DNA from: Vulcanimicrobiota bacterium
GTDB lineage: Bacteria; Vulcanimicrobiota; Xenobia; Xenobiales; JADMJV01
DNA: 64,000 nt
Reading direction: 5' to 3'
Assembly: GCA_050250895.1 (NCBI GenBank)
Contig: JBFWNU010000004.1
Coordinates: 353,362 to 417,361, forward strand
This document shows, piece by piece, positions 2,887 to 34,444 of this stretch (its first letter is position 1; each line of letters opens with the position of its first letter). The position numbers and the translations under genes were made by a program. The notes beneath the pieces were generated by a model, which saw nothing but the letters and a program-made list of their open reading frames with translations, was not told where the DNA came from and did no database searches.

Positions 2887-2903
2887 TTGCCATAGAGGGC
2901 TAG

Positions 2904-6070: not shown

Positions 6071-6073
6071 GGC

Positions 6074-8685: not shown

Positions 8686-8770
8686 TGTTCATAAGCTTTA
8701 GCCGCTCCTGCCATCGAAAGCCGAGCAGAGCGAGAGGACCTGGTCGCGCCAGGAGGAAGCGGGAGCGACC

Positions 8771-13270: not shown

Positions 13271-13366
13271 CCCAGGGCTGCCTGTTCGTTAGCGGTCTCA
13301 TTCGCAGGCCTGGCTCGGTGGGGGTCGAAGGTCGCCCCCAGTCCACAGGTAGGCCGGCGATCCCAG

Positions 13367-18300: not shown

Positions 18301-21300
18301 TCGAAATGATCGATGCTTCCGAGCCCTCTCTGGGTGGTCGTCGAGCGCGCCTGGGGCAGCCGGTCGACGCATTCGAAGGCGGCTTCGAGGCGGGCCCACT
18401 GGAGGGCCCGCTGGCGACGCGGGTGGTCGACCGAAGTCACGATCACATTGCGCTCCTTCAAATTTTGGCGGGCCAGTTGAGTCAACACCTGTTTAGGGCC
18501 CACTTCGACGAGCAGGCCGACTCCGTCGTTCACGAGTTGATCCAGGAGCTGACCAAATCGGACCGGCTCGACCAGTTGCCGAACCAGATTCTGGCGGATG
18601 ACCTCGACCTGGGTAGCCGGCTGATTGGTCACGTTACTGTAAAACAGGATCGTGGGTGGACGCAGCTCGAGCCTGGCCAGCCGGGCTTCGAGGGCCGTCT
18701 GAGCCGATGCCACCAAAGGAGTGTGAAGGGCGCCCGGAACCTTGAGCCGGCGAGTGGGCATGCTGTCTTTTCTCAGCTCGCTCTCCAGGGCGGCCAGCTG
18801 ACTGTTAAGGCCGCCCACCACCGTCTGACCGGCGGCGTTATAATGGGTGAAATAAAGTCCTAGCTCGGCCACCAGAGGCTCGAGCCGTTGGGGAGGCGCG
18901 GCCACGGAAAGCAGACCTCCGTCGGGCGAGGCTGCTAGCAGAGCCTGAGCGCGGACCTGGGTCAGCTCCAGAGCGTCTTCGAAGGTCATGACCCCGGCCG
19001 CCACCAGGGCAGGAATCTCGCCAAAGCTGTGGCCACACACACAGTCGGGCCGATAGCCTTGCTCGTCGAGCACGGCGAAAGCGATCTGATCAGCGATCAA
19101 GACGGCCAACTGGGTGACCACCGGGTCGGCGTCAAGGCGCTCATCCGCTTGCCAGGCCAGGAGTCCAAAGCCAGGCAGGCCCATCTTCTCGAGGGCAGCG
19201 TCGGCCCGGCGCACCACGGCTGCCGCGGCCGCGGACCCGCTCACCAGGTCTCGCAGCATGCCTTGATACTGAGAGCCCTGACCCGAGAAAAGATAAGCGA
19301 TCCGCGGTCGAGCACGGCCGAGTTCGCAGTAGAAGATACCCTGCTCTTCGAGCAGGCGCCGGCCCTTGGCTTCGGCCAACTGGTCAGCTGCCAGAGCCAC
19401 ATTCTGGGCCAGGCGAGGCTGGTCGGGAGCCACGGCCACCAGGCGGACCGGGTCGGCCTGCGCCAGGCCCTGGCGACCCTCGCGAAGGTTGGTCGCCAGT
19501 TGGTTCGGGTCGTGGGCACTGTAGCGAGCCACCCGGGCGGTGACGGATGACCGGGGGCCGGCGCCCTCGAAGATGAGCTGGGCAGCCTGGCCGGTCTCGG
19601 CCAGGCCGGCCAGCACCACTCTCTCTTGCGGATGGCACAAGCTAGCTCTCAACAACGAGAGCATCCCCCCGGCCGCATGCAGAGCCCCGAATTGGGCGGC
19701 CAATGAGGGCAAGAGGGGCTTGCCGCAGACCCGCTCCAAAACCGGGGCCAACTCGGCCGAGGGGGCATCAGCCAGGGCAAGGCCCGGGTCAGACAAGGCA
19801 GGGCCGACCACCAATTCGAGGGCCGACTCGGGGGTGAGTCCGCTGGCGAGTTCTGCCGTGTGCAAAAGGCCATAGATTCGGTCCCCGTCCTGCTGGGCTC
19901 GGTCGAGGGTCTTGAGGATGACCACTCCGACCCCTTCGCCTGGCAACTGGGCGCTCAAACGACCTTTGAGGGCAAGACTCTCGAACCCCACCAGGTCCAT
20001 GGAGTGCTGGCCGGCCGCCACCACCACGGCTGAGCAATCGCCGCCCCGCAGCAGGTCACAACCCACCTTCAAGGCCGCCTCGGACGATGTCTCGCCCACA
20101 TCGAGAGCCAGGGCTCCACCGCGCCAATCGTGGGCTTTAGTCAATCGTGAAGCGAGAGAGCTACAGGTAAAGCCTCCCGTCTCGTCGAGCAGTGCCGAGT
20201 ATCGCTCGAAGAAAATCCGGTCGAACTGCTCGAGCAATCCGGGCTTCGAGAGGCCCAACTCAGCCAGCAGCCTGGCCACCTCACGGCGAATCTCGGCGTG
20301 GCGAAAGCCCACTTGCATCTGATTGCCGAAGTCCGAACAAAAACTCGCGCCCACCACCACGGCTGTCGAGTTTGCCTCGAGTGGGGAGCCCAGCTCTGCC
20401 AGGGCCTGATTGGTCGCATCCAACAGCATCAGCTGGACCGGATTGGCCCGCTTGACCTGCTTGGGAGGAATCTTGTGGCCGACGGCGTCGAACTCGAAGT
20501 TAGTGATGTAGCCACCGCGACGGGTGGGCGTATGCCAGGGCTGGAGCTGCTCGGCCAGGCCGGCGTCACTGGGCCAGCGACCGGCCGGCGGTTCGCCGAG
20601 TTGGGACTGGCCGCTGCCGAGCAACTCTTTCAACTCGCCCAGGTTGCGAGCGCCGGGGACGACGACGCCGCGCCCGACCACCGCCACCAGCGGCTCGTCG
20701 GCGGCCACCGGCTCGACCGGTCCGCCTGGCTCTTCGACCACCAGGTGAACGTTGAGACCGCCCACCCCAAAGGCGCTGACACCGGCTCGGCGAGTCTCTC
20801 CCTGACGGGGCGCAGGCCAATCGGACGGCTCTCGCTGGACCACGAAAGGTAGCCGCGACCAGTCCACTCCGGGGTTGAGCTGGTCGACGTTGATGGTGTG
20901 GGGAATGCCGCGGTGTCTCAAGGCCAGCACGACCTTCAACAAACTGGCCAGTCCGGCCGTCTCGAGCGTATGCCCCAAATTGGACTTGACACTGCCGATG
21001 GGTATCTGGCGTCCTTTCAGATGAGGCCCGAAAAAGGTCGACAAAGACTCGAGTTCGGTGGCGTCACCCAGCTGAGTGCTGGTGGCGTGGGCTTCGATGT
21101 ACTGGACGCTGGCCGCGTCGACTCCGGCGTAGCAACGTTGCAGCGCCTCGAGCTGTCCCTCGGCACGGGGGGCCCACAGACTGCGACCGCGACCATCCGA
21201 AGACAGACCGATCGAGCGGATCACCGCTTGCATCGAATCCCCGTCGCGGCGGGCCGCATCGGCCCGCTTGAGGACCATTGCCACCACTCCTTCGGAGCTG

Positions 21301-22088
21301 ATCAGGCCGTCGGCTTCGGCATCGAACGGGCGCGAGCCGGACGCGCTGCACGATTGGGCGTGGGAAAAGAGAATGAGGCTCTCCGTCTTGTTGTAGGAGG
21401 ACCCTCCGACGATGGCCAGGTCGATTTCGCCCCGGGTCAGAGCCAGGGCGGCCAGGGAGAGAGCCACCAACGACGAGGCACAGGCGGCGTCTACCACCAG
21501 CTGAGGGCCGGCCAACCCCAGTTGCCGGACCAGCAGGCCCGCGATCCATTGGGCCTCGAGACACGGTTTGCCTTCCCCGTCGCGGCGAGGCCGTCCGCGG
21601 CGTAGCTGGCCGGTCAGGGCTTGCATGGCGGCCTGACGCGTCTGGGTCGGCAAAGCGCGAAAATCGGGCAAGCACTCGAGCAACTCCGCCACCTGAGCGG
21701 CCAGGGTGGCTACCACCAGTTCTCCCCCCCGGGGCGTTCCTCCGGAGTGACCGGCATAGACACCGACTCGCTGGCCTTGCAGCCCGTCAGCATAGCCCGC
21801 CTCGGCCAGCGCTTCCAGAGCCACATCGCAAAAGATGCGGTGGCTCAAGTCATAGGAATCATCTCCCGAGCGGGCCTGGCAAGACTTGAGGCAGCCGCCG
21901 ATGCTGGAGTAAGTCTTTCCCACCTGACCGCGGGTCGAATCAAAGTAAAGTTCTCGGTCCAGTCGCTCGGGGGGCAACTCGCGAACCGCATCATGGCCGT
22001 TCCAGAGCAACTCCCAGAATTCGGCCGGGTTGTCCGAATCGGGCAGGCGGCAGCCGCACCCCAATATCGCGATAGGAGCGATCTTCAT
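15378..22088 (-). CDS. Type I polyketide synthase, single module: KS / KS-like / AT / ACP / KR / DH
   Basis: 2236 aa; KS DAACASS + HATST + GHT; AT GQGSQ + GHSFGE; ACP LGIDSI; KR TGGARGIT + YSAAN; C-terminal HRVEDVPVLP hot-dog motif; 4-bp overlaps with flanking genes. Confidence 0.9.
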   Translation of the reverse strand: MKIAPIAILGCGCRLPDSDNPAEFWELLWNGHDAVRELPPERLDRELYFDSTRGQVGKTYSSIGGCLKSCQARSGDDSYDLSHRIFCDVALEALAEAGYADGLQGQRVGVYAGHSGGTPRGGELVVATLAAQVAELLECLPDFRALPTQTRQAAMQALTGQLRRGRPRRDGEGKPCLEAQWIAGLLVRQLGLAGPQLVVDAACASSLVALSLAALALTRGEIDLAIVGGSSYNKTESLILFSHAQSCSASGSRPFDAEADGLISSEGVVAMVLKRADAARRDGDSMQAVIRSIGLSSDGRGRSLWAPRAEGQLEALQRCYAGVDAASVQYIEAHATSTQLGDATELESLSTFFGPHLKGRQIPIGSVKSNLGHTLETAGLASLLKVVLALRHRGIPHTINVDQLNPGVDWSRLPFVVQREPSDWPAPRQGETRRAGVSAFGVGGLNVHLVVEEPGGPVEPVAADEPLVAVVGRGVVVPGARNLGELKELLGSGQSQLGEPPAGRWPSDAGLAEQLQPWHTPTRRGGYITNFEFDAVGHKIPPKQVKRANPVQLMLLDATNQALAELGSPLEANSTAVVVGASFCSDFGNQMQVGFRHAEIRREVARLLAELGLSKPGLLEQFDRIFFERYSALLDETGGFTCSSLASRLTKAHDWRGGALALDVGETSSEAALKVGCDLLRGGDCSAVVVAAGQHSMDLVGFESLALKGRLSAQLPGEGVGVVILKTLDRAQQDGDRIYGLLHTAELASGLTPESALELVVGPALSDPGLALADAPSAELAPVLERVCGKPLLPSLAAQFGALHAAGGMLSLLRASLCHPQERVVLAGLAETGQAAQLIFEGAGPRSSVTARVARYSAHDPNQLATNLREGRQGLAQADPVRLVAVAPDQPRLAQNVALAADQLAEAKGRRLLEEQGIFYCELGRARPRIAYLFSGQGSQYQGMLRDLVSGSAAAAAVVRRADAALEKMGLPGFGLLAWQADERLDADPVVTQLAVLIADQIAFAVLDEQGYRPDCVCGHSFGEIPALVAAGVMTFEDALELTQVRAQALLAASPDGGLLSVAAPPQRLEPLVAELGLYFTHYNAAGQTVVGGLNSQLAALESELRKDSMPTRRLKVPGALHTPLVASAQTALEARLARLELRPPTILFYSNVTNQPATQVEVIRQNLVRQLVEPVRFGQLLDQLVNDGVGLLVEVGPKQVLTQLARQNLKERNVIVTSVDHPRRQRALQWARLEAAFECVDRLPQARSTTTQRGLGSIDHFDATRPRLERVLGEDSLSGKTRTTAIDARAQAFLLDHVADLTGYPRSALKLEWELEADLGIDSIKRTQLLGELRDAFGLDTSDKELANLRSLKDILEHIGVTEAPTEAEAPLLPRVSGQAYESARLRGRAQSQAIRAALRHDALKVFPWQRRPGKDLEAGLDPATLEELRGLAEGAGVHLYNLIGYKERHGTLPGSTPDQTQRYLMRMVECPLPLSPTRSLGGASLIIGDNALSRELASRLRGPVHILDTHRALTELKRGLEALGPLPHLFITTAWVPGELERPEHYTARITTPFWLCQEWLRRVKGDGLVDEATVVAVTRLGGGFGFGTPIEGPDGGFLAGLLKSMRIENWVAGHRDLTVKVIDCGPDISASDAGQRVLRELCHRNYELEIGEIAGQRALVTAEPQPVDDRDGQAVLPRGNWVCTGGARGITAHVARELAGRFGLKLHLIGRAPGPSHPPEWRARWLQDRRGLKLEVMDTARSQGAANPVKSWEAVEKGLEIEAALVALHEAGLEAHYHSCDLSDRDRLAQTLQAIRADGPIRGVLHGAGATRDSKFEQKDHQKVGECLGAKVLGTHNLMSLMAADPLDFFVAFGSISGRFGANGHADYSAANEMMAKLVAYYRQQRPEVGAVTFHWHAWGDVGMAVKGESQLGLELVNMNFMPAAEGVAHLIAELQAGAPRAEVLITDEHYYRRFYHAELFETQQAARPLLGTSNQVWLDPEQEAFLRDHRVEDVPVLPLVVALELACEAQSRGPGPIGLRRVRPAGFLKFHEGRPRQVEVARDDNTVRLLYAQLARDGTVLEARRTLLEVELVNEMPVESLACPEVPDQWEPVAYSDSGQMYHGPSLRTLRRYQIEGETLWGELVAPPLVELAGSHRSTVGWRLPSAILDGCLYAAGILAWKSVREGHTVPATIGELWVGRLTRPGERCVVRVQWIGEERFEIHLWGDDGQLMARAHDYRLAWLGVPNRIGA
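15381..16226 (-). other. PKS dehydratase-like hot-dog domain, approx. residues 1955-2236
   Basis: HRVEDVPVLP (HxxxDxxxxP variant of the DH HxxxGxxxxP motif) at ~1993-2002. Confidence 0.55.
16344..17651 (-). other. PKS ketoreductase (KR) domain, approx. residues 1480-1915
   Basis: NADPH-binding VCTGGARGIT (~1685-1694) and catalytic YSAAN (~1871). Confidence 0.75.
17994..18236 (-). other. PKS acyl carrier protein (ACP) domain, approx. residues 1285-1365
   Basis: Phosphopantetheine attachment motif ADLGIDSI (Ser ~1324); only one such motif found. Confidence 0.75.
18399..19301 (-). other. PKS acyltransferase (AT) domain, approx. residues 930-1230
   Basis: FSGQGSQ at residues ~934-940 and active-site GHSFGE at ~1019-1024. 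Confidence 0.8.
19854..20693 (-). other. PKS second KS-like segment lacking catalytic Cys (chain-length-factor-like), approx. residues 466-745
   Basis: KS-like N-terminal half (VAVVGRGVVVPG, NPVQLMLLDA, LDVGETSS in place of Cys motif, GEGVGVVILK) that then loses KS similarity. Confidence 0.5.
20733..22082 (-). other. PKS ketosynthase (KS) domain, approx. residues 3-452
   Basis: Active-site Cys in DAACASS (residue ~203), His in EAHATST and NLGHT. Confidence 0.8.
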
Positions 22089-23458
22089 GCGGCCCCTAGT
22101 AGATCGACGACGTGCATCAGCATTTTTAGCGCTTCATCCAGGCGCTCGGAGTCCCCGACGAGCACCAGCTCACCTGCATAGAGAGCTTGCTCTGGGGTCA
22201 GCTGGCGGCCTGCCAGGTGAGCCAGCGTAGGCAGGCTGCAAAACGCTTCAGGCGCGCATTCGACTCTTGTCAGGGGAGTGCGTCCCGTTTCGGCAAAACC
22301 CCATTGTCCCCCTTCGGGTCCGGGCACGGTCAAAAAGAGCCGGGGTTCTGAGTTTGAGGCCAGCGGAATTCGCGAAAGTCGCCGGGCCAGATCCCACTCC
22401 GGCGCAGCCTGAAAGCGATGTTCCAGGGCGAAACCGACCAGCCGTTTAAGCGCCTCGCCATCCAGACGAGGGCAAGGCACGCCACTGTGCTCGAGGGTCA
22501 GCTGGCAGTCAAAGGTCGGATGGTTGCTGAGATAGGGTCGATAGGTCGACACCGCGGCCGGCCCGTCGAGCGATTGAACCGATGGCGGTTGGTCATCCTC
22601 GCTTCGACAGGCGCGCACAGCGTCATACAGAGCTTGGAAGCTGGTGGGATGAGGATTGGTCAGATGATAATATTGCTGGGCCGAGCGCTCCTGGCCCAGC
22701 AACGCGATGACCACCTGCGAGACCCAGTCCACCGGAACCAGGTTGATCCCGTCCTCGGGGTCTTCGACCCCTACCGTTTCTAGTAGTGAACGACTGCTCG
22801 AGGCCGAGTTCAGCCAGGTCAGCAAGAGGAGCGGGTACGCTCCCTGAAAATTCGGGGTGTAGCCGGTGGAAGACTCGCCTACGATGATGGAAGGACGATA
22901 GATGGTGAAACGCCGCAGAAACTCGGCCTGGGCAACCAGCGACTCGGCCAGGGCCTTGCTGCGCTCGTAGTCATTGTTGAAGACCTGGTGAAGGGGCACG
23001 GGTCGGGGCTCAAGGTTGGGAACGGTGGCCCCGCAGACGTAGGCGGTCGAAATCAAGTGAAACTCGTCGAGGTCACACCCGCGACTCAGTTCGAGCAGGC
23101 GGGCGGTTGCGTCGACATTGGTCAGATAAGGTTCTCCACTGCCATCGGCTCGAAACTTCACGGTGGCTGCCGAATGCAACACCCGGCAGCAGTGGTTCTT
23201 GAGCCACTCACGAGCCTGCTCGTCAAGACCGAGATCGGGTTGGCGCAGGTCACCCTCGATGAGCTGGGGACGAGGGAGCTGGCGGGCCAGCCCTCTTTCC
23301 AGTCGCTGGCAACAAACCTCGATCCTTTCGGCTGCAGACGCTCCGTTCGTCGGGCGAGCCAAAACCGCGAGGTTCAAGCCTTGCAATAGACCGTCACGCA
23401 TCAAAAACTGGCCCAGCAGGCCGGTTGCTCCGGTGAGTAGCGTAAAGGTTCTATCCAT
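22085..23458 (-). CDS. Stand-alone thioester reductase-domain protein (NAD(P)-dependent fatty acyl reductase-like)
   Basis: 457 aa; LLTGATGLLGQFL Rossmann motif at N-terminus, YERSK catalytic-type motif; no ACP segment; stop overlaps PKS start by 4 bp. Confidence 0.7.
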   Translation of the reverse strand: MDRTFTLLTGATGLLGQFLMRDGLLQGLNLAVLARPTNGASAAERIEVCCQRLERGLARQLPRPQLIEGDLRQPDLGLDEQAREWLKNHCCRVLHSAATVKFRADGSGEPYLTNVDATARLLELSRGCDLDEFHLISTAYVCGATVPNLEPRPVPLHQVFNNDYERSKALAESLVAQAEFLRRFTIYRPSIIVGESSTGYTPNFQGAYPLLLLTWLNSASSSRSLLETVGVEDPEDGINLVPVDWVSQVVIALLGQERSAQQYYHLTNPHPTSFQALYDAVRACRSEDDQPPSVQSLDGPAAVSTYRPYLSNHPTFDCQLTLEHSGVPCPRLDGEALKRLVGFALEHRFQAAPEWDLARRLSRIPLASNSEPRLFLTVPGPEGGQWGFAETGRTPLTRVECAPEAFCSLPTLAHLAGRQLTPEQALYAGELVLVGDSERLDEALKMLMHVVDLLGAA

Positions 23459-23532
23459 TGATGCTTACCAGTTCTTGGCGTCGCGCCCGACTAGCCCGGT
23501 GTCGACCGGCATCGCCCAGCGCCGGGATGACG

Positions 23533-23590
23533 CAAGTCTAAGACAGTATACGAGATCCTCCGAGATTTCAAGTCTTTGGCCAAGTCTTCA
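23533..23590. promoter_or_regulatory. Three direct copies of CAAGTCT (plus two CGAGAT) in the region upstream of the thioester reductase-PKS-SDR operon
   Basis: Copies at ~23533, ~23569 and ~23581 in the 130-bp gap between the hydroxylase gene end and the reductase start codon (23458, minus strand). Confidence 0.3.
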
Positions 23591-24676
23591 AGCCTGACCA
23601 CGGGTCTCGATGGTGGGTCTTTCGATAGCGGTCTGGGCTTCTTTCCAGCGAACTCCACCGGGCAAGAGGTTGTAGGCTCGCTGGAGTCGAGCGATGGCGC
23701 GGGTTTCGGCCGTCGACAAACAAGGGTGCCACAGGTTGAGAAAGAGGACCACCCTGAGCTGATCGCTGTGATTCCAGACCTCGTGCACGAAAGCGTCGTC
23801 AAACACCAGCACTTCGCCCTCCTCCCAGGTGGCCACCTGACCGCCGACTCGCAGGCCACAGTGGTCGGGCACCAACAGACCCAGATGGAAGCGAAGAATA
23901 CCGTTGATGGTGCCTACATGAGGAATGATTCGGCTCTGGGGGTTGAGGGCCGAGAACAGGATGAACTCTTTCTCGAGCCGGGGCAGACTGGCCAGCAACC
24001 CGCTCGTCAGGGGACAGCGTCGACAGTTGTCTTCCACCGCCTCACCCTGAATGTAGAAGTGGAAGGTGTTCCAGCCCGGCATCAGGTTGCCGTACTCCGT
24101 GCGATAGTTGCCAAAACCGCGCGGCTCCGCCAAGAGATCGTTCAACTCGTGGCGAATGGTCTGGCAATGCTCGCGCAGGATGGAGGTCCAGGGAAAATCT
24201 GAAGCCTGGTAGAGCCGGCGGGCGGGAATGCCAGGCAAAAAGAAGTGGGGGCGTTGATGGGGGTCGGTAAACTCGGTGCAAGGCCAATCGTCTTGATGGA
24301 AAAAGACGTCGAGAAAGCCGGACCGGTGGAACAGCGCTTCGGCCACGTTGCGATATCCGAGCCTGGCACAACCCCGTTGGAACGTGGCGTGGGCGTCCAG
24401 TCCGAACACCGCTCGGGCGAAGGCGTCGGTCTGGGCTGGTCGGAACTGGTTGGCCAGGTCACGCCAGAACCGGGCCGTGGGGTTGCTGACGAAGGCCCCT
24501 CCCAGGGCCCAGAGCCGATGCAGCCCCCACACCGACAGCCCGAGCGCGGTGGGGCCGCTCGCCGCCACCCTGGCCCAGACCCGGCGCAGCCAGGCCGGCA
24601 GACGCACCGGAGAACCATCCAAACCCAGCTGGTCGTAGCTCACCTGCATCAATTGTTCGAAAGTAGGTTGGGCCAC
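23588..24676 (-). CDS. Asp/Asn beta-hydroxylase-family Fe(II)/2-oxoglutarate oxygenase (LpxO-like)
   Basis: 362 aa; C-terminal cupin segment IPHVGTINGILRFHLGL ... DDAFVHEVWNHSD ... NLWHP resembling the aspartyl/asparaginyl beta-hydroxylase family. Confidence 0.65.
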   Translation of the reverse strand: MAQPTFEQLMQVSYDQLGLDGSPVRLPAWLRRVWARVAASGPTALGLSVWGLHRLWALGGAFVSNPTARFWRDLANQFRPAQTDAFARAVFGLDAHATFQRGCARLGYRNVAEALFHRSGFLDVFFHQDDWPCTEFTDPHQRPHFFLPGIPARRLYQASDFPWTSILREHCQTIRHELNDLLAEPRGFGNYRTEYGNLMPGWNTFHFYIQGEAVEDNCRRCPLTSGLLASLPRLEKEFILFSALNPQSRIIPHVGTINGILRFHLGLLVPDHCGLRVGGQVATWEEGEVLVFDDAFVHEVWNHSDQLRVVLFLNLWHPCLSTAETRAIARLQRAYNLLPGGVRWKEAQTAIERPTIETRGQA

Positions 24677-25852: not shown

Positions 25853-26513
25853 GCGACGGCTAAGGAAGCCCTGGTATGGCATCATTGGCGAGCTGTTTTG
25901 GGGCTGCTCGCTCACCATGTTCGAAATGGTCAATCTGGGCGGGTTTCCCTGGTGGTGGAAGCTCCACTGGCTGATGTTTCGCCACTATCGCGGCTTTGAT
26001 CCCGACGGGCGGGTGCGGCAATTGTACGGCAACAACCCGGGGTCGCTGGCTTATGGTGAAACCCCCGTCTCGGCCACTCGGCGCATGCTGGCCCTGGCCG
26101 AACTGCCGGTAGGTTCGACCCTGGTCGACCTCGGTTGCGGACGCGGCCTGGTAGCCATGGCGGCCGCCTGTTCAGGCTATCGAGCGGTGGGGGTCGAGGT
26201 GATGCCCGAGTATCTCGCAGCCGCTCCGCTCATCACGGCCGCCCTCGACATCGAGGTGGAGTGGCTGATCGGCGATTTTCTCGAACTCGAACTGCCTCGG
26301 GGCGATTGTTATTTCGCTGCCTCGACAGCGTTTCCCCAGCCTGTGCGCGAGCAACTCGGGCAACGCCTGGCCGAGGTCGGGGCCCCCCTGCTGATCACGC
26401 TCGACTGGATCGTCGAGCATCCTGACTATGAACCCATCCGGTCGCTGCGACTGCCGACCACCTGGGGCACCTCGCTGTTTACCGTCCACCGACTTCGGGG
26501 AACAGAGCCTTGA
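25845..26513 (+). CDS. Class I SAM-dependent methyltransferase
   Basis: Frame 25800..26513 trimmed to ATG 25845 (ATGAATGA overlap with upstream stop); motif I LVDLGCGRG, acidic post-I GVEV, motif II IGDF. Confidence 0.7.
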   Translation: MNERRLRKPWYGIIGELFWGCSLTMFEMVNLGGFPWWWKLHWLMFRHYRGFDPDGRVRQLYGNNPGSLAYGETPVSATRRMLALAELPVGSTLVDLGCGRGLVAMAAACSGYRAVGVEVMPEYLAAAPLITAALDIEVEWLIGDFLELELPRGDCYFAASTAFPQPVREQLGQRLAEVGAPLLITLDWIVEHPDYEPIRSLRLPTTWGTSLFTVHRLRGTEP

Positions 26514-27973
26514 TGGATTTCTTACCTGTGCTCTCTGAATCGGCCCAGGCCTTCTGGCGTACCAGTTACGGCCTGCTGCTGTTTTTGACCCTGTTGCTGA
26601 CCTGGCCGGCTTCGAAGTGGTTCTTCCGCAGCGAGAAGTGGGGTGGCTATGCCGAATCGAGCCCCACCGTCGATCTCGTTCAGAACCCCTTCATCCATCC
26701 CCTGGTGATGGGACTGTGGTTCACCTGCGCCACCATGCTGATGCTGGGACGCGACACCGTCCTGTTCGCTCTCATCAACCTGGGCCTGTGCTGGTATTTT
26801 TTCATCTACATGCGTTGGCGCGGCATCTTGCGCGGCATGGGGGCTCCCGGCTTCATGTGTTACTGGATGGGAGCGGCGGTGCTGTTTCTCGAGGCTGGTC
26901 GCCATCTCGACCCCAGCGGCCGCTTGCTGGCGGCGGGTCTTTTCGCCTTTCAGGTCGACTACGCCATCATCCAGCTGTGTGCGGGCAGCTACAAGCTGCG
27001 AGCCGGCTATCCCCGCAACGAGGGCATGCAGTTAGGAATGGCCAATCCCTGGTGGGGCTACTACTGGCGCTTCTTCAAGCAGCTCGATTACACCCATCCT
27101 CTCTACGTCTTTCTCAACCAATCGGCCTATCTGACCCAAATCGGGGCGGCCTTCTTGATGCTCTATCCTCCGACGCGGTTGCTGGGAGCAGGCATCATCA
27201 TGGCCAGCTTCGTGTTCATTCTCACCCAGATCCGCCTGGGTGTGCTGTGCGAGATGGTCATTATCGGCGGCCTGTTGTTCATCCCAGCCGGCGGCGTGGT
27301 CGACGGTTGGGTGACCTGGCTGATGGGGCACCCCCAGGTGCCCCAGAGTCTGCCCCAGATGCCGCCCTGGCTGGCTACAGGCCTGGCCGCTTTCTTCTGC
27401 GTTTATATCGCCTTGCTACCCTTTGCCAAGTTCGGCCAGTGGTATAACTATCTGGCCCACCAGCGTTTGCCCGAACCTTTTCAGACCTTCCTCGAGAAGT
27501 GGACCAACGCCTTCGGCATCATCATCTGGCGCGTCTTCTCGGTGGATGTGGTCAACTTCTTCGTCCGCGTCTATCAGGTCGACGGCGATGGCCGCGAGCA
27601 AGAATACACCTGTTTCGGAAAGATCGACTGGCCGACGCGCTGGCGCTATATCCATGTGGGCGAGTTCGTCTGCTTTGCCTCGATTTTCACGACGCTAAAA
27701 TATCATCCCAGCAACTCGGAGATGTTTCGCGCCAAGCTGGTTCGCTACGCCCGCACCATTCCTTGTCCCTCCGGAGGCAAGCTTCGCTTTGCCTATTTCT
27801 CGCTGGCCCGCGGCCAGGGAGAGATCGAACATCGCCACAGTGCCGACTTCCTCGTCGAGCCCCACTCGGGCCACCTCGAGGTGCGCCAGTATGACGACCT
27901 TGACCTGAGCAAGGGCCATGCCGTTTCTCCCGTGCGAGAGGGTGCCCGACCTGGAACCTACGCGCCGGCCTGA
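26513..27973 (+). CDS. Polytopic integral membrane protein, unknown function
   Basis: ~486 aa; ATG at 26513 overlaps upstream stop (TGATG); N-terminal two-thirds highly hydrophobic with Trp/Tyr-rich helices, C-terminal soluble region. Confidence 0.6.
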   Translation: MDFLPVLSESAQAFWRTSYGLLLFLTLLLTWPASKWFFRSEKWGGYAESSPTVDLVQNPFIHPLVMGLWFTCATMLMLGRDTVLFALINLGLCWYFFIYMRWRGILRGMGAPGFMCYWMGAAVLFLEAGRHLDPSGRLLAAGLFAFQVDYAIIQLCAGSYKLRAGYPRNEGMQLGMANPWWGYYWRFFKQLDYTHPLYVFLNQSAYLTQIGAAFLMLYPPTRLLGAGIIMASFVFILTQIRLGVLCEMVIIGGLLFIPAGGVVDGWVTWLMGHPQVPQSLPQMPPWLATGLAAFFCVYIALLPFAKFGQWYNYLAHQRLPEPFQTFLEKWTNAFGIIIWRVFSVDVVNFFVRVYQVDGDGREQEYTCFGKIDWPTRWRYIHVGEFVCFASIFTTLKYHPSNSEMFRAKLVRYARTIPCPSGGKLRFAYFSLARGQGEIEHRHSADFLVEPHSGHLEVRQYDDLDLSKGHAVSPVREGARPGTYAPA

Positions 27974-29066
27974 ATTCGGGCTGGCCACTTCGGCCTTTCA
28001 AGTCGAAGGCGGTTGGTCCGAGCGAGGTGCTTCCATTTGGGATGAGGCCTGTCCTCAGGCAGCCACAGCCTGCGGCAGCTGGCCCGACTTCGAGGGTGAA
28101 CTGGCCATGCTGGGCTGGCTGGGCGCCGAAGCCTTTCGCTTCTCTCTGGCCTGGCCTCGGCTTTGCCCGGACGGACGCCGATTTGAACTTGCTCGGCTGG
28201 CCCCTTACGAGCGCTTGGTGGAGCGATTACTGGAAGCCTCGATTCGGCCCGTTCCCACCCTCTATCATTGGGACCTGCCGCTGGCCCTCGAGGGCGGCTG
28301 GAAAAACCCCGACACGGCCCATCGCTTTGCAGACTACGTCGAGGCGGTGACAGGGCGGCTCTCGGACCGAATCGGACAATGGTTCACCCTCAACGAGCCG
28401 TGGTGCAGCTGTCATCTGGGCTATGAGACCGGCGAGCACGCCCCCTTCGAAACTTGCCCGCCCCGGGTGGTAGCCCAGGTTCGTGACCACCTGCTCGGGG
28501 CTCATCGCCTGGCGGTCCAGGCCATTCACGCCGCCGGAAGCCGCTGCGGCGCCGCCATGCTGCCGATTCCGTTGGTGGCCGCCGGACCCGAACACGAAGA
28601 GGCGGCCGAACTGGCCTGGCGCGAGGTCAACGATGTCTGGTTCGAGCCGCTCTATCCAGCCGACTTTCTGGGTCTCAACCTCTACTATCCCACTCTGGTC
28701 GAAGCCGTCGACGGCGGCTGGCGAGAGGTTCCCTGGTCGGGACCTCGCACCAGCCTGGGCTGGCCCGTGGACCCGGGCTTCTACGGCCCCACCATCGAGA
28801 AGGTCCTGGGCCGCTATGGTCCTCAAACTCTGGTGATCAGCGAAACCGGTTGGGCCACCTCTGATGACAGCCAAAGACAGCAGTGGCTCGAGGCCTCGCG
28901 GCTTGACCAGCTGCCGGTCGAAACGGTCTTCTTCTGGAGCCTGATGGACAATCTAGAGTGGCAGCACGGGTTCGAGCCTCAATTCGGGTTCTTCAGCCGC
29001 CAGGGCCAACCCAAACCCAGCGCCGCCTGGCTCAGGCGTAATTGGGGCCAAGCGAGGGGCGACTAG
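27918..29066 (+). CDS. Glycoside hydrolase family 1 (beta-glucosidase-like)
   Basis: 382 aa; N-terminal FGLATSAFQVEG, acid/base TLNEP, nucleophile ISETGW; start overlaps upstream gene by ~56 nt so true start may be the GTG at ~27942. Confidence 0.85.
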   Translation: MPFLPCERVPDLEPTRRPEFGLATSAFQVEGGWSERGASIWDEACPQAATACGSWPDFEGELAMLGWLGAEAFRFSLAWPRLCPDGRRFELARLAPYERLVERLLEASIRPVPTLYHWDLPLALEGGWKNPDTAHRFADYVEAVTGRLSDRIGQWFTLNEPWCSCHLGYETGEHAPFETCPPRVVAQVRDHLLGAHRLAVQAIHAAGSRCGAAMLPIPLVAAGPEHEEAAELAWREVNDVWFEPLYPADFLGLNLYYPTLVEAVDGGWREVPWSGPRTSLGWPVDPGFYGPTIEKVLGRYGPQTLVISETGWATSDDSQRQQWLEASRLDQLPVETVFFWSLMDNLEWQHGFEPQFGFFSRQGQPKPSAAWLRRNWGQARGD

Positions 29067-29424
29067 GCCCCGCAAAACTCGAAGCTCCGGTCGCCCGGGA
29101 TTCTTTGGCCGCGAAGCGCTCGAGGTATTGACGAAACAAGATCTGGCCGGTCGAATCGCAGGAAAAGGACACCAGGCATCGCCAGCAGCCGTTATCGAAC
29201 TTGACCTGATCGACCCGAGCACTGGCCCGCACGGTGCCGATGGTGACCAGTTGAAAATCGAAGGTCATCGTTTCGCCCGGTTCGACTCGCACGAAACTCT
29301 TGACCAGGACGCGCTGCAAGCCCACCTCGTGGCTCAACATACAGGTTGGGCGATCAGCGCCTACCCGCCAGGCGAAGATGAGCAGACTAAACTCTAGCTC
29401 GTGAAACTCCGGTAACAACGACAA
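29032..29424 (-). CDS. Hypothetical protein (weak call)
   Basis: 130-aa ORF; third-codon positions more G/C-rich than the overlapping plus-strand ORF 29128..29397; no recognisable motifs. Confidence 0.3.
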   Translation of the reverse strand: MSLLPEFHELEFSLLIFAWRVGADRPTCMLSHEVGLQRVLVKSFVRVEPGETMTFDFQLVTIGTVRASARVDQVKFDNGCWRCLVSFSCDSTGQILFRQYLERFAAKESRATGASSFAGPSRPSLGPNYA

Positions 29425-29552
29425 CCCTTCTTCCTCTCTGGAGCTTACAGCATAACTGGCAACACTGCAAGATGCCCGAACACGAATTTTAACATTTTTT
29501 TCGTCGCATCTTTGCCCGTTCTCTGCTTAAATAGGGGGTAGGAGTTTCTTGT

Positions 29553-30083
29553 ATGGCGACGATCAATCCCAATACCCCTCTCAATTCCGTCCTCCCCACC
29601 CGACCCGCCGCGACTGGCCTGCCCCTCTCTACTTCGCTCGGCAGTGGTCAGGTCCAGTTTCAGGCCCTGACCACCCTCGGTTTGGGTTGGCTCGACTTCG
29701 GAGGTGTTACGTCGGCGCAGCACCCTGGTTTCAATTTCGGAGCACCGGCTTTTCCGGCCGGCTTCGGCACGCCGGCCGCCATCCAGAGCCTGGTGGGCGC
29801 AGGCACCTTTCCCGAGTTGGATGTACGTCCTTTCCAGGCGCTCGACGCGGCCACCCTCAACCTGACCCCCCAGCTGCCCGCGGGCGTGGCGGGCGGCGTA
29901 ACCGCTCCCAAAATGCCCAGCCTACCAAAAGACTTCGAGAAACAGCTCAAGAAACAGATGGAGCAGTATGACAAGGCCATGAAGTCGGCCTTGAAAGGTG
30001 CCAGCAAGGGCGATAAGGCCGTCCTCTCGACCTATGAGGCCAGCAACAAACTCTGGCGCCAGTTGCTCGGATTGCCCGGCTAA
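29553..30083 (+). CDS. Hypothetical Ala/Gly/Pro-rich protein
   Basis: 176 aa; GGAG Shine-Dalgarno ~8 nt upstream of ATG 29553, preceded by the most AT-rich intergenic stretch of the window. Confidence 0.5.
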   Translation: MATINPNTPLNSVLPTRPAATGLPLSTSLGSGQVQFQALTTLGLGWLDFGGVTSAQHPGFNFGAPAFPAGFGTPAAIQSLVGAGTFPELDVRPFQALDAATLNLTPQLPAGVAGGVTAPKMPSLPKDFEKQLKKQMEQYDKAMKSALKGASKGDKAVLSTYEASNKLWRQLLGLPG

Positions 30084-30119
30084 CGCAGGGGAGAGCCCGC
30101 CGAGCGCAAAGGGATCCTC

Positions 30120-30494
30120 ATGCGAAAGATGATTCCGTTGCTATTGCTGATTCTGGCCCTGCCCAGCTGGGCCGAAGCCCCGACTGTAGGCGGTTGGTGG
30201 CGTCTTCATATGACCAACGGACATTGGAAGAAGGAAGTTCGCCTCAACCTCGAGCAAACCGGTGAGCGGCTAGAAGGCTATCTGTTCGACTCGAGCTTCT
30301 CGGGCGGAACCAAGGTCCAGGGCAAGGTCGACGGCGACCGCGTCATGGTTTGGTGCAAGGTCGAGGACCGCGCCGGGAACTCCGCCGAGTCGACCTTCCG
30401 AGCGGACCTCAAGGACGACCAGATGGTGGGCACCGCCGACTACTTTTCCAAGCGCTATGAGTTCACTGCCGAGCGCTTCGAACCCGAAAAGTAA
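30120..30494 (+). CDS. Hypothetical secreted protein
   Basis: 124 aa; signal peptide-like N-terminus MRKMIPLLLLILALPSWAEA; AAGGGA upstream of ATG. Confidence 0.5.
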   Translation: MRKMIPLLLLILALPSWAEAPTVGGWWRLHMTNGHWKKEVRLNLEQTGERLEGYLFDSSFSGGTKVQGKVDGDRVMVWCKVEDRAGNSAESTFRADLKDDQMVGTADYFSKRYEFTAERFEPEK

Positions 30495-30495
30495 T

Positions 30496-31221
30496 CTATA
30501 GCCTTCGATAGAGCGAGAGAAACCGTTCACTGGAAGCGGTCAACGGCGTCTTGTTCCAATCGCCGTACCGGGCCTCTAGAGCCAGCCCCGCCAGCCGGGC
30601 CATCAGGTCGAGTTCGCTGGGCCAGACGTAGCGCAATTCGGCCGGATAGCACTCGATGCCCCCCGTGCCCATCAAGAGATGGCGGGCCGAGACGCGCTGG
30701 CGAACCAGGTCGTGGATGGCGAAGTGGACATGAACACCGTCGTCGGTCATGGCGTAAGCGGCCACCCGCTGTCCTCGATCAAAGCGAGCCGGGTCCGGCC
30801 AGAAAGCCTCGACCAGAAATCGACCCCCGGGCTCGAGATGGGCAGCCACGCACTCCATGCAATGGATTTGATGCTCCTGGTCGAGCAGAGCCAGAAAGGT
30901 CGAGAAGGCGATGAAGACCAGCCCGTAGCGTCGCTGCAGCTCGAAGTCGCGAAAGTCGGCCCGGTGCACCGTCAGCTCGGTGCCGCCTGGCTTGGCCCGC
31001 AACATCTCGATCATCAGATCGGAGATATCGAGCCCTTCGATCTCGACCCCGGCCTCGGCCAGCGGCAGGGCCAGCCGGCCGGTCCCGATGCCCAGCTCGA
31101 GGACCCGCCGCGAACCTGCCAGTTCAAGCAAAAGCTCGACGGCCCCGGGCTCGGGGTCGGGGTAGAGCCGGTCGTAGATTGGCGCGATGGTATCCCCGTA
31201 GGTGCTGGGGTTATAGGGCAC
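30496..31221 (-). CDS. Class I SAM-dependent methyltransferase
   Basis: 241 aa; motif I VLELGIGTGR; apparent GTG start overlapping the stop of the upstream coiled-coil gene. Confidence 0.8.
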   Translation of the reverse strand: MPYNPSTYGDTIAPIYDRLYPDPEPGAVELLLELAGSRRVLELGIGTGRLALPLAEAGVEIEGLDISDLMIEMLRAKPGGTELTVHRADFRDFELQRRYGLVFIAFSTFLALLDQEHQIHCMECVAAHLEPGGRFLVEAFWPDPARFDRGQRVAAYAMTDDGVHVHFAIHDLVRQRVSARHLLMGTGGIECYPAELRYVWPSELDLMARLAGLALEARYGDWNKTPLTASSERFLSLYRRL

Positions 31222-32198
31222 TAGACGGAGTAGATGCCCATATCGAACAGGGCGTTGGTGAGATAGGCCGGCAGCACCTCGGAGAAGTTCTCGTTCTTAG
31301 GCTGGGCGTTAGCGGCGGCCATCATCTGGCGAGGGTCCATCAAGAAGTTGTCTTGCTGTTTCTGCGATTTGGCGGCCTCTCGTTCGGCGGCCATGGCCTG
31401 AGCCATGTCTCGGTCGTAATCGAGCAGGGCCTGTAAGTCTTCGGAGCCCTCTTCGGCCTGGGCGTGCCGCTGCTCCATCTCGCGCAGTTGCGAGAGTCCG
31501 CTATCGGCTTTGGCCAGGATCTCGCCGGTCGGCGGCAGGTCGATCTTCCAGCGCTCGTCATCTTGATCTTGCTGCAGCTTGAGAGCCTTTTTCTTGCTGT
31601 CGACGACCATCCGCTGGAGCTCGCCCTGCAAGATGGGGTCGTGCAGCGCGCCTTGATTCTGGGCCAAGAACTGCTTCACATTGGTGGTCTCGTTCTTGGT
31701 GAACGACTCGCGCTGGTCGGCGTGCTTGGTGGCCAACTCGTTGCGTTTGGCGGTCTCGAACCCTTCCCGGGCGAGACGTTGCTGCGGGTTCTCTGGCCCT
31801 TTCTCGACCTGGGGGCGGCCCTGCTGATCGAGAGCCACCTCGGGCTTGCCGTCGTTGCCGAATTTGGTGGCATAGTGGTTCTCTTCGAAGAACTCTTGCT
31901 TCATCTGGCCCAGCTCGTTCTGCAGGTTCTGCTGCAGGTTCTGTCGTTCGCCATAGTGCTGGGTCTGCATCTGTTGCAGGTTGTTGAAGGATTTCTCGGG
32001 GTAGTCTGGGACCTTGAAGTCGAACGTGATGGGGGACTTTAGTTCGGGCTCGTCGCGCTGCAGCAGGTCCAGATTGCCTTTCATTGCGTCGGTCTGACGC
32101 TGCATCTGCTGGATCTGGTTGCGCATCTGGTTGCCCTGCGTCAACCCTTGAATTGTGTTGATGAGCAAACCGACGCCCATTACCGCCCACATTGCCAT
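31221..32198 (-). CDS. Gln/Asn/Glu-rich coiled-coil protein with N-terminal membrane anchor
   Basis: Frame 31221..32261 trimmed to ATG ~32198 (MAMWAVMGVGLLINTIQG), which has AAAGGAG 9 nt upstream; remainder is strongly Q/E/K/N-rich helical heptad-like sequence. Confidence 0.55.
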   Translation of the reverse strand: MAMWAVMGVGLLINTIQGLTQGNQMRNQIQQMQRQTDAMKGNLDLLQRDEPELKSPITFDFKVPDYPEKSFNNLQQMQTQHYGERQNLQQNLQNELGQMKQEFFEENHYATKFGNDGKPEVALDQQGRPQVEKGPENPQQRLAREGFETAKRNELATKHADQRESFTKNETTNVKQFLAQNQGALHDPILQGELQRMVVDSKKKALKLQQDQDDERWKIDLPPTGEILAKADSGLSQLREMEQRHAQAEEGSEDLQALLDYDRDMAQAMAAEREAAKSQKQQDNFLMDPRQMMAAANAQPKNENFSEVLPAYLTNALFDMGIYSV

Positions 32199-32284
32199 GT
32201 TGGGACAACTCCTTTTGTCTTTTTTGGAGAGGGCATACTTCTCCAGGTCCCATGCTAACACAAACTATAGGGCGCAAGTCAAGG

Positions 32285-34444
32285 ATGCCGGGCACTTACG
32301 GCGAAACCAAACCCATGGGGCAATCACCAACGGTCCTGGTGGCCGGCGCTGACGAGTCGGTCCGCCAAGCGCTAGATGTCTGTTTTCCCGATCTCGCCAT
32401 GGACCGATTCGAGACCGGGCGTGCCGCCATGAATGCTCTGCTCAAGAGCCATTACGATCTGGTCGTGCTCGACCATCGACTCCAGAAGCCCGACGGGGTA
32501 AAGCTGCTAGAGTACCTGGCCAACCATCCCCGCCTGCGCGAAGCCCAGGTCATTTACTGCCTCGGCAAACATGTCGATGCCGCTCTACCCCGGCGTCTGG
32601 TCACCGAGCTCGGCGTCACGTCGCTCATCTATCATCCGGTCGAGCCCGAAGAGCTTTGTTTTCAGATGGCTCGGCTGCTGGGCTTGCCGTCGCCGGTAGC
32701 CCTACCCCGCCTGACCGTGGACACCCGGCGAACCACCAGTCGAGGCGACGGTGAAGGGGGGCTCTTGCTAGCGGTGGGCCTGGGTGAAGACATGGTGGCG
32801 GATCTCATCCCGCGGGCCACGGCCCGACGCTTGCGTACGGCCGTGTCCGAAGATTGGCAGAGCCTGACCGCGGCCGAGTGGATCGAAGACCCACCCCAAC
32901 TCTTGCTGGTCGACCTCAGCGGGCCCGAACGCAAAGAGAGGATGGCCCTTTTCGGGCGGATTCACGAACTCGAACTCAACACCCAGGTCATCGCCCTCGT
33001 CGGCGAAGAGCTGCAAGACAGGGTCGAAGCTTCCAACCGCGGGGCAGCCCGGGTGCTGACCAAGCCCTTCACCATCGAGGCCGTGATGGATGCCATCTAT
33101 GACGTGCTCGAGAGCAACAAAGAAGAGCAACTCAAGATTCTAGTGGTAGACGACGATCCCCTGACCCTGGCCAACTTGCAGTGGCTGCTCACCCAGACGG
33201 GCTACCGCGTGCAGACCCTGAGCCAGCCGTTGGCCTTTTGGGAATCCCTCGAGTCGTTCGTGCCCGACATGGTGATCCTCGATGTCATCATGCCAGCCGT
33301 GAGCGGTCTTGACCTTTGCCGAGCGGTGCGCACCGATTTGCGCTGGCGCGATCTACCGCTGCTGTTTTTGACCATTCAAAGTGACGCGGTGACCGCCCAC
33401 AACCTGTTTCAGGCCGGGGCCGACGACTTTCTCAACAAGCCCCTGCACAGCCTGGAAGTGCTGACCCGGGTGACCAACCGTCTGTCCCGCGCTCGCACCG
33501 CCCGCAGCGCCGATCGGGATGGCCTGACCGGAGTGCTGACCCGACGACGGGCCGCTCCCACCCTGCGCCGCCTGCTGCGCATGGCCGACCGCCGCGACAT
33601 CCCCTTCTCGTTGTGCGTGCTGGATCTCGACAACTTCAAGCAGGTCAACGACACCCACGGCCACCCGGCCGGCGATCAGGTGCTGGCCGCTCTGGGCAAA
33701 CTGCTCCACCGGGCTTTCCGCAACGAGGACGTGGTGGCCCGTTGGGGTGGCGAAGAGTTCGTGGTCGGTCTCTATGGCATGCCCTCTAGCACCGCCTCAC
33801 GCCGACTGCGCGGGTGCCTCGAGAAGCTGCGCAAACGGATCTTTCGCGGGCCGTCAGGTCCGTTCGGGGCCACCTTCAGCGCCGGGGTGGCCGAGTACCC
33901 TCGCGACGGTGAAGACATTCAGACCCTTTACGCCCAGGCCGATGCCGCCCTTTATGAGGCCAAGCAGAAAGGCCGCGACCAGGTGGTCGAGGTCTCTGAG
34001 CAGCGCCAACCAACGGTCAGTCGGGTGGTGCGCAAGGTCGACATCGCACTGGTGGCTCCGGTGGCGGAATGGAGCCATCTGCTGGCCGACGGCCTCAACG
34101 AGACCGGCTACAGCTCGGTGTGGTTCGAATCCACCGAAGAGGCCACCGCTCAGCTGACGGTGACTCCGGCCGAACTCCAGGCGAAACTGATCGTCTTGGA
34201 CCTTGACTCCACCGGCAGCCTGCTCGAAGACCTGCGCCTGGACCGCCGACGCGACTTCACCCAGGTCCTGGCGGTGACGGGTCAGACCAACGCCGAGGTT
34301 CGCCTCTGGGCTCTCGACCAGGGAGCCTATGATTGTCTCGAAGCCGGCTGCGGACTGCCGTTGATGTTGCGCAAGCTGGATCGAGCAATGCAGTTTGGCT
34401 ACATGTCCGAGCATATGCCTCGGCCGACCGCGGCACGCTCGTAA
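32285..34444 (+). CDS. Multi-receiver response regulator with GGDEF diguanylate cyclase domain
   Basis: Degenerate REC-like segments, then a canonical REC (KILVVDDDPL ... MVILDVIMP ... FLNKP), GGDEF domain with RNED I-site-like motif immediately before GGEEF, and a C-terminal receiver-like segment; start among in-frame ATGs at ~32252/32285/32315 is uncertain. Confidence 0.8.
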   Translation: MPGTYGETKPMGQSPTVLVAGADESVRQALDVCFPDLAMDRFETGRAAMNALLKSHYDLVVLDHRLQKPDGVKLLEYLANHPRLREAQVIYCLGKHVDAALPRRLVTELGVTSLIYHPVEPEELCFQMARLLGLPSPVALPRLTVDTRRTTSRGDGEGGLLLAVGLGEDMVADLIPRATARRLRTAVSEDWQSLTAAEWIEDPPQLLLVDLSGPERKERMALFGRIHELELNTQVIALVGEELQDRVEASNRGAARVLTKPFTIEAVMDAIYDVLESNKEEQLKILVVDDDPLTLANLQWLLTQTGYRVQTLSQPLAFWESLESFVPDMVILDVIMPAVSGLDLCRAVRTDLRWRDLPLLFLTIQSDAVTAHNLFQAGADDFLNKPLHSLEVLTRVTNRLSRARTARSADRDGLTGVLTRRRAAPTLRRLLRMADRRDIPFSLCVLDLDNFKQVNDTHGHPAGDQVLAALGKLLHRAFRNEDVVARWGGEEFVVGLYGMPSSTASRRLRGCLEKLRKRIFRGPSGPFGATFSAGVAEYPRDGEDIQTLYAQADAALYEAKQKGRDQVVEVSEQRQPTVSRVVRKVDIALVAPVAEWSHLLADGLNETGYSSVWFESTEEATAQLTVTPAELQAKLIVLDLDSTGSLLEDLRLDRRRDFTQVLAVTGQTNAEVRLWALDQGAYDCLEAGCGLPLMLRKLDRAMQFGYMSEHMPRPTAARS

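Follow-up and report, generated by a model that had tools for sequence, protein, structure and literature searches.

A conserved hypothetical protein from a Vulcanimicrobiota bacterium, predicted to form a helical bundle with a conserved beta-hairpin

The DNA analyzed here (the window) is a stretch of 64,000 nucleotides from contig JBFWNU010000004.1 of a Vulcanimicrobiota bacterium, and our subject is one gene on its minus strand, at 31221–32198, which encodes a protein of 325 amino acids followed by a TAG stop codon. It lies between a methyltransferase gene on the same strand and, in the opposite orientation, a gene for a GGDEF-domain response regulator. An earlier annotation made from the DNA letters alone (the sequence-only reading) had described a Gln/Asn/Glu-rich coiled-coil protein with a signal-anchor, possibly co-regulated with the neighboring cyclic di-GMP (c-di-GMP) regulator. 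The start codon proposed there held up: a Shine–Dalgarno sequence, AAAGGAG, is found at 32209–32215 (minus strand), 10 nucleotides 5′ of the ATG at 32198, and the resulting N terminus reads MAMWAVMGVGLLINTIQGL. Orthologues at 15 other loci begin at an equivalent M(M/I/A)W, with GGAGG- or AGGAG-like sites upstream, and the starts of the homologues always fall 1–2 codons ahead of a conserved Trp. A mechanically generated list of open reading frames (ORFs) had begun the frame further upstream, with a GTG at 32261, giving 346 amino acids, but this longer version is unsupported because the orthologues begin at the equivalent position with Shine–Dalgarno-like sites of their own.

The unusual composition claimed for this protein was also confirmed when we compared it with the 25 other ORFs of the window. 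Gln makes up 13.2% of its residues versus 4.3% in the others, Asn 6.5 versus 2.0, Lys 6.5 versus 2.1, and Met 4.9 versus 1.5; there is no Cys at all, and Gln, Asn, Glu, and Lys together account for 34.8% of the protein, versus a range of 9.4–20.8% among the other ORFs. The ratio of nonsynonymous to synonymous substitution rates (dN/dS) against the nearest orthologue (locus L001, 72% identical) was 0.17, indicating purifying selection. From the reading frame, its homologues, and this ratio, we conclude that the ORF is a genuine, constrained gene.

A search of 5.8 billion proteins recovered 27 full-length homologues of 280–332 amino acids and 35–99% identity; none of these has a Pfam domain or is named as anything other than “hypothetical protein,” and the window protein is not a fragment of a larger known protein. 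The family grew to 78 relatives when 1.84 billion representative proteins were searched exhaustively with a profile; one tier of these is distant (E 1e-16 to 1e-8; ∼270–350 amino acids) and shares chiefly a central motif, F..NHYEFD..G.P....G.P.L.EGAE..Q...R..WE, together with later “GLPDP” and “SPEGQ” turns and a “DP.AM” near the C terminus. The relationship is reciprocal, since a profile built from the distant tier alone recovered the window protein at E 3.8e-40. A word-indexed search with the remote-tier alignment gave 2 matches only and was uninformative. In the full alignment, strongly conserved blocks lie on either side of a variable region: an N-terminal block, MWAVMGIGMLINTIQG; a central block, FF..NHYET.FG.QGK..V..D..G.P.V..GPE.PQQ..AR..FE, followed by DPGVQGELQKMIV.GKKKALKLQQDQ.DERW..DMPP; the later blocks SPD.Q.LL.Y and NFLMDPRKMM; and a C-terminal block, VLPGYLT..LF.MGIY.V.

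Scanning one genome per GTDB species, we found 19 loci, 11 of which carry the labels Vulcanimicrobiota, Eremiobacteraeota, Xenobia, or UBP9. Three others are labeled Burkholderiales (L004 and L017) or Selenomonadaceae (L016); because these share synteny with the Xenobia loci, we regard their labels as probable mis-assignments. The gene was single-copy at each recovered locus, and a profile search detected no paralogue within the 64-kb window. As judged from these sequences, the family is found mainly in uncultivated Xenobia (Eremiobacterota/Vulcanimicrobiota), with remoter relatives elsewhere.

Neither the window protein nor 10 remote relatives matched any Pfam, NCBIfam, PHROGs, or PADLOC family above the gathering cutoff, and no family was matched consistently by 28 close members (alignment A2) or 25 remote members (alignment A3). 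Among Pfam models, DUF7491, a coiled-coil region of unknown function, alone reached E < 0.01 with the window protein (17.8 bits over residues 21–102). This score falls below the 30-bit cutoff, and the model was matched by just 2 of 28 family members; since the match is confined to the low-complexity Gln-rich part of the protein, we consider it compositional. Searching the PDB by sequence, we obtained no match at E values up to 10 with alignment A2 and only designed bundles with a larger alignment (A4). No solved structure resembles the protein beyond helical hairpins.

We predicted the structure with AlphaFold2. A model based on 28 sequences reached a predicted local distance difference test score (pLDDT) of 72, and one based on 58 sequences spanning the superfamily reached a pLDDT of 86.7 and a predicted template modeling score of 0.76. 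In the latter, residues 1–22 score below 50 and residues 67–325 score 84–98. Between the N-terminal peptide and the core, residues 19–66 (32001–32144, minus strand) form a Gln-rich helix and linker, the least conserved part of the protein and variable in length, with pLDDT 40–80; the helix (residues 19–45) and the linker up to residue 66 are thus of low-to-moderate confidence, and Gln makes up 19.5% of residues 21–61. The conserved core, residues 67–325 (31224–32000, minus strand), is modeled as a helical bundle, with helices at residues 68–106, 138–180, 188–219, 225–250, and 253–285 followed by short C-terminal helices. Between the first two long core helices, residues 107–133 form short strands that make up a Gly/Pro-rich polar beta-hairpin region. 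The C-terminal motifs FLMDPRxMM and LPxYLTxxLFxMGIYxV (residues 285–325; 31224–31346, minus strand) belong to a segment modeled, with pLDDT 84–91, as lying packed against the core.

The heptad-like spacing that the sequence-only reading saw as dominating the protein was examined with an a/d-occupancy scan set against 300 shuffles, and no sustained periodicity emerged. Heptad spacing is present in two short stretches, at approximately residues 22–49 and 78–105, but 36 of the 300 shuffles reached its maximum score and 18 of 300 had as many high-scoring windows. The first example given for it, QMRNQIQQMQRQ, falls in the least conserved, low-confidence linker. These nonsignificant heptads, and the compact bundle with a beta-hairpin in the model, speak against a canonical coiled-coil protein; instead of an extended coiled coil, the prediction is a compact bundle of several helices that includes a conserved beta-hairpin.

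The most conserved part of the family is a module at residues 100–148 (31755–31901, minus strand), recognized by its invariant alignment columns and running from the end of helix 1 through the polar Gly/Pro-rich beta-hairpin into the start of helix 2, with the signature NHY..G.P..G.E..R..E. Its conserved residues are K100, F103, H108, Y109, T111, G117, G127, P129, G134, E136, R144, and E148. Across the 58 diverse sequences of the superfamily alignment, E136 and R144 are the only invariant columns, and conservation reaches at least 90% at H108, G127, P129, G134, and E148; because of this pattern, the hairpin tip of the model is the best candidate for a functional site. One distant relative from outside the window, P0065 (634 amino acids), carries the helix–hairpin–helix module three times in tandem, and this triplication shows the module to be an autonomous unit. 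We put forward, as a serious possibility that we would not yet call probable, that the window protein founds a new superfamily whose fold has no match, in which a ∼50-residue helix–polar beta-hairpin–helix with the consensus F..NHYE.D..G.P....G.P....G.E...Q...R..[WF]E would constitute an undescribed binding or assembly module, and which in Xenobia would be single-copy, transcribed from its own promoter, and equipped with an N-terminal tether.

A helical hairpin and a tandem triplication also bring to mind self-assembly. A soluble protein might oligomerize through the hairpin, like the “jellyfish”-shaped holdases prefoldin and Skp (OmpH), or dock its N terminus onto a neighbor and so build a polymer or a chaperone-like cage. 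The three modules in the single P0065 chain could mimic a trimer, the conserved termini of the protein are unmodeled or only moderately confident, as expected for intersubunit contacts, and chaperone genes adjoin the family gene at some loci (GrpE–DnaK–Hsp33 at L021 and, in a group of related loci described below as group C, a pair of Hsp70-like genes with DUF2760). Against this, in the model the hairpin is packed into a bundle with three more helices and the C-terminal segment, unlike the free tentacles of the holdases; neither prefoldin nor Skp shows sequence similarity to the window protein or scores any better than designed bundles; and chaperone neighbors occur in a minority of contexts. 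We consider self-assembly of this kind unlikely.

Residues 1–18 (32145–32198, minus strand) form a conserved hydrophobic peptide, defined by alignments and hydropathy, with the family motif x-W-x-x-x-G-[IV]-G-x-L-[IL]-N-T. The sequence-only reading took it for a signal-anchor; its hydrophobicity is real and conserved, but a classical signal-anchor is not established. The hydrophobic run extends for ∼16 residues and includes Asn, Thr, and Gln. Its 19-residue Kyte–Doolittle mean is 1.49 in the window protein, mostly 0.8–1.3 in close relatives, and below 1 in most distant relatives, where the usual threshold for a transmembrane segment is 1.6. The Hessa-type apparent free energy of insertion, estimated with approximate scale values and without a position term, is +3.9 kcal/mol in the window protein, and on the same scale it ranges from +2.8 to +10.6 across the family and is positive in 21 of 21 members tested. 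Two members, P0038 and P0046, have hydrophilic N termini and lack the hydrophobic motif altogether. These values bear on the model of the sequence-only reading, a true bitopic signal-anchor on a coiled-coil membrane scaffold that is co-regulated with the divergent GGDEF regulator. The conserved peptide does contain a small-x-small motif (GxG) and an Asn, and such features can drive the association of transmembrane helices; its Eisenberg mean hydrophobicity of 0.60 with a low hydrophobic moment (0.19) also makes it uniformly hydrophobic rather than amphipathic, in the intermediate range. Yet the run is short, its hydropathy lies under the threshold in most members, insertion is calculated to be unfavorable in all members tested, some members lack the segment, and the remainder of the chain is predicted to be a bundle. 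We regard this model as improbable, with the part concerning the GGDEF gene taken up below; of the membrane-anchored structural or scaffold role proposed with it, the helical character and the conserved hydrophobic N terminus keep a tethered structural or adaptor role possible, whereas hydropathy does not establish a true anchor and the coiled coil is unsupported.

No basic n-region, lipobox, or twin-arginine motif was found in the window protein, which starts MAMWAVMG, directly with the hydrophobic motif. With no n-region, no lipobox or Cys, and no RR motif, a Sec- or Tat-exported protein or a lipoprotein was rejected. Basic residues come after the hydrophobic segment rather than before it, so that by the positive-inside rule the body of the protein would be cytoplasmic, which from the sequence is the most likely location. 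The hydrophilic N termini of P0038 and P0046 point the same way. The N-terminal peptide itself may be a tether or a docking element, of uncertain kind.

We compared these features with known helical proteins of similar architecture. PspA and Vipp1 (IM30, bacterial ESCRT-III) resemble the window protein in size, in their membrane-seeking N-terminal helix, in being encoded by a standalone gene, and in a long helical hairpin followed by further helices; membership in this superfamily, judged by the ESCRT-III fold, an amphipathic alpha0 helix, and a PspA_IM30 match, was rejected. The ClyA-family alpha-pore-forming toxins (ClyA, XaxAB, and Hbl/Nhe) are likewise elongated helical bundles of ∼300 residues, in which a beta-hairpin is set between long helices and the N terminus carries a hydrophobic element.

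A third likeness is to the needle proteins of type III secretion systems (SctF; MxiH/PrgI, PF09392), which share the order of helix, (S/N)P turn, helix, and C-terminal aromatic tail. The remote-tier profile (A3) aligned with almost all of MxiH (E 0.0062) and also picked up BsaL (E 0.18). The MxiH match raised the possibility that the protein is exported through a nonclassical N-terminal signal, for example as a type III-like substrate whose C-terminal helical hairpin would be needle-like, and the lack of Cys, the richness in Gln, Asn, Ser, and Thr, and the Ser/Gly/Asn/Met-rich N termini of remote members would agree with it. However, hhalign against 18 true SctF sequences gave probabilities of only 3.2% (A3), 0.2% (A2), and 1.6% (A4), with the match of the largest alignment, A4, falling on a different turn; these values led us to reject identity with the needle protein. 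The window protein is four times longer than SctF and lacks a type III secretion context: no member of the family matches T3SS_needle_F (PF09392), and no type III or other secretion-system genes lie near the loci examined. The “SP/DP” turns of the family recur at every helix start, resembling generic N-caps, and the C terminus is packed on the core in the model. Nonclassical export is, in our estimation, highly improbable.

The gene divergent from the family gene encodes a PleD-like response regulator with three receiver domains and a GGDEF domain (REC-REC-REC-GGDEF; 32315–34444, plus strand), so that the opposite orientation described by the sequence-only reading is correct. The regulator ORF spans 32192–34444 (plus strand), and its start is ambiguous, with ATG codons at 32252, 32285, and 32315. 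Upstream of the family gene we found a sigma-70-like promoter candidate at 32252–32282 (minus strand), consisting of TTGACT (32282–32277), a 19-nucleotide spacer, and TAGCAT (32257–32252) preceded by TGT; a regulator start at 32252 would place this site inside the regulator gene. In 13 of 17 orthologue upstream regions there is a TTGxxx-N17–19-xAxxxT site ending 31–69 nucleotides ahead of the start, and sites scoring at least 8 occur in 6 of the 17, where 300 shuffles gave 0.76 on average and 4 at most. A stricter built-in promoter scan reported nothing upstream of the family gene. The comparison of orthologues suggests that the family gene has a promoter of its own.

We compared gene contexts by clustering ORFs across the 19 loci, with further contig look-ups, among loci with comparable flanks. 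The arrangement seen in the window, with the divergent GGDEF gene and the downstream methyltransferase gene, was kept in L001 only. Similarity to L001 reaches upstream of the likely start of the GGDEF gene. The divergent arrangement, with its ∼90–115 bp intergenic region, is also retained there, which would favor the signal-anchor model in its regulatory part; no c-di-GMP riboswitch or other Rfam element was found in window positions 29000–33000, however, and the other orthologues occupy at least four unrelated contexts. The suggested co-regulation with the c-di-GMP regulator was thus not borne out as a trait of the family, given a GGDEF neighbor in L001 alone, no riboswitch, and a promoter-like site of its own, and a c-di-GMP-linked operon partnership with the regulator was rejected on the restricted neighbor, the other contexts, and the negative Rfam search.

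In the first of these other contexts (group A), the gene is divergent from a DUF58/transglutaminase/MoxR/TPR operon and is itself followed by FeoB. It lies after TypA and ahead of a lytic transglycosylase and pseudopilins in group B, and between a BcrAD/BadFG ATPase and pyrroloquinoline quinone propellers in group D. In group C, a spermidine-synthase-like gene lies on one side and a small membrane protein with a GMPP/PMM gene on the other, with the Hsp70-like pair and DUF2760 upstream. Distant relatives adjoin GrpE–DnaK–Hsp33 (L021), SerRS (the family gene following it), or a Spermine_synth gene (L026). Within group C, the pair of large Hsp70-like proteins is conserved upstream in L007, L015, and L016, and L017 shows one of them at its edge; L007 and L015 have a TPR protein and a DUF2760 protein further upstream. 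In L003, L015, L016, and L017, but not in L007, the spermidine-synthase-like gene and the family gene are divergent. No operon partner was conserved across the contexts compared, and only minority recurrences were seen, of type IV pilus-related genes (group B and L024), chaperone genes (L021 and group C), and spermidine-synthase-like genes (group C and L026). Searches of PHROGs, PADLOC, phage and plasmid records, and viral contigs gave no phage, plasmid, viral-contig, or defense match.

The link to the downstream gene is tighter than that to the GGDEF gene and had been overlooked in the sequence-only reading. This gene, at 30496–31221 (minus strand), encodes a class I S-adenosylmethionine (SAM)-dependent methyltransferase (Methyltransf_25, E 3e-13). 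The TAG stop of the family gene shares one base with its GTG start (TAGTG, 31219–31223, minus strand), an overlap that implies translational coupling in this lineage only, where the two genes are also predicted to be co-transcribed, and the gene order is kept, to within a few nucleotides, in L001. The best NCBIfam match of the enzyme is a daptide-type methyltransferase, acting on a ribosomally synthesized and post-translationally modified peptide (97 bits, E 1e-27), which does not reach the cutoff of 175; through its methyltransferase domain it also matches the PADLOC “mad2” model (E 9.5e-15). The family protein could be a substrate or partner of this enzyme in the present lineage, undergoing Gln or Lys methylation, for example. 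The overlapping genes, the peptide-modifying nature of the closest named relative, and the spermidine-synthase-like class I transferase that adjoins the family gene in group C and L026 are consistent with such a role. But the coupling was observed in just two genomes and most orthologues have no methyltransferase nearby, the daptide match lies far under its cutoff, and the group C enzyme is divergently oriented and unrelated in sequence to the window methyltransferase (BLASTP E 0.15), by which a shared methyltransferase partner was rejected. We consider this relationship very unlikely.

Our preferred reading of the protein, which we hold as possible and rather tentative, is a cytoplasmic adaptor or scaffold with an N-terminal hydrophobic tether and a Gln-rich spacer, acting through the hairpin face of a helical bundle. 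The N-terminal peptide, with its G-x-G-x-L-x-N motif, would act as the tether, either inserting into the inner membrane, shallowly or as an oligomer, or docking into a partner, and the variable Gln-rich helix and linker of ∼45 residues would serve as the spacer. The polar beta-hairpin tip of the bundle (H108, Y109, E136, R144, and E148) would be the working surface, used for partner binding or self-assembly. The gene would be transcribed from its own housekeeping-type promoter and, in this lineage only, would be translationally coupled to the SAM methyltransferase.

Several observations weigh against the adaptor reading. The role of the invariant hairpin residues may be no more than structural; the i, i+4 spacing of R144 and E148 fits an intrahelical salt bridge, and the AlphaFold2 model is of a monomer. 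The Eisenberg value of the N-terminal peptide sits in the “multimeric transmembrane” range and its hydropathy is ambiguous, so that the segment could instead be a true short transmembrane anchor. Remote members have Gly/Met/Ser/Phe-rich N termini that are unlikely to bind membranes, and tethering may therefore not be the ancestral role. Lastly, among the loci compared no conserved neighbor points to a pathway. The probability left over from the adaptor reading and the four alternatives considered above falls to the case in which none of them is right.

Elsewhere in the window, a 124-amino-acid protein with no family match and a classical Sec-type signal peptide at its N terminus (MRKMIPLLLLILALPSWAEA) is encoded at 30120–30494 (plus strand), and a small Pro/Gly-rich protein with a Lys-rich C terminus, no family match, and a weak counterpart in L001 is encoded at 29553–30083 (plus strand). 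The ORF at 27918–29066 (plus strand) encodes a GH1-family glycosidase of 382 amino acids, shorter than the 453-position Pfam model, and overlaps the preceding ORF of 487 amino acids, which matches no family, by 56 nucleotides (the pair spanning 26510–29066, plus strand); the start of the glycosidase gene or its integrity may be questionable. A single-module polyketide synthase of 2236 amino acids (KS-AT-ACP-KR-DH) occupies 15378–24676 (minus strand), and it is adjoined immediately upstream, on the same strand, by genes for an NAD_binding_4 (“male sterility”) reductase and for an Asp/Asn beta-hydroxylase; the three genes have the appearance of a small cluster for a lipid or alkyl product. The region at 370–14635 is an exopolysaccharide/capsule-type locus with a Wza-like exporter bearing SLBB repeats, a Wzy-like polymerase, two GT4 glycosyltransferases, a GH10 hydrolase, a GNVR chain-length protein, a sulfotransferase, and a flippase.

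Uncultivated phyla hold many conserved hypothetical families, and the novelty of this one is the lack of a sequence or fold match, with no new mechanism demonstrated; as it cannot be tied to a pathway, partner, or phenotype, the family itself does not address a long-standing question. If our account is true, it is nevertheless a well-delimited family that databases list only as “hypothetical protein” and that is ready to be defined as a domain family, on the grounds of a confident predicted fold, few invariant residues, and a repeatable module. It would also offer a possible lineage marker for Xenobia, to our knowledge a class without cultured members.

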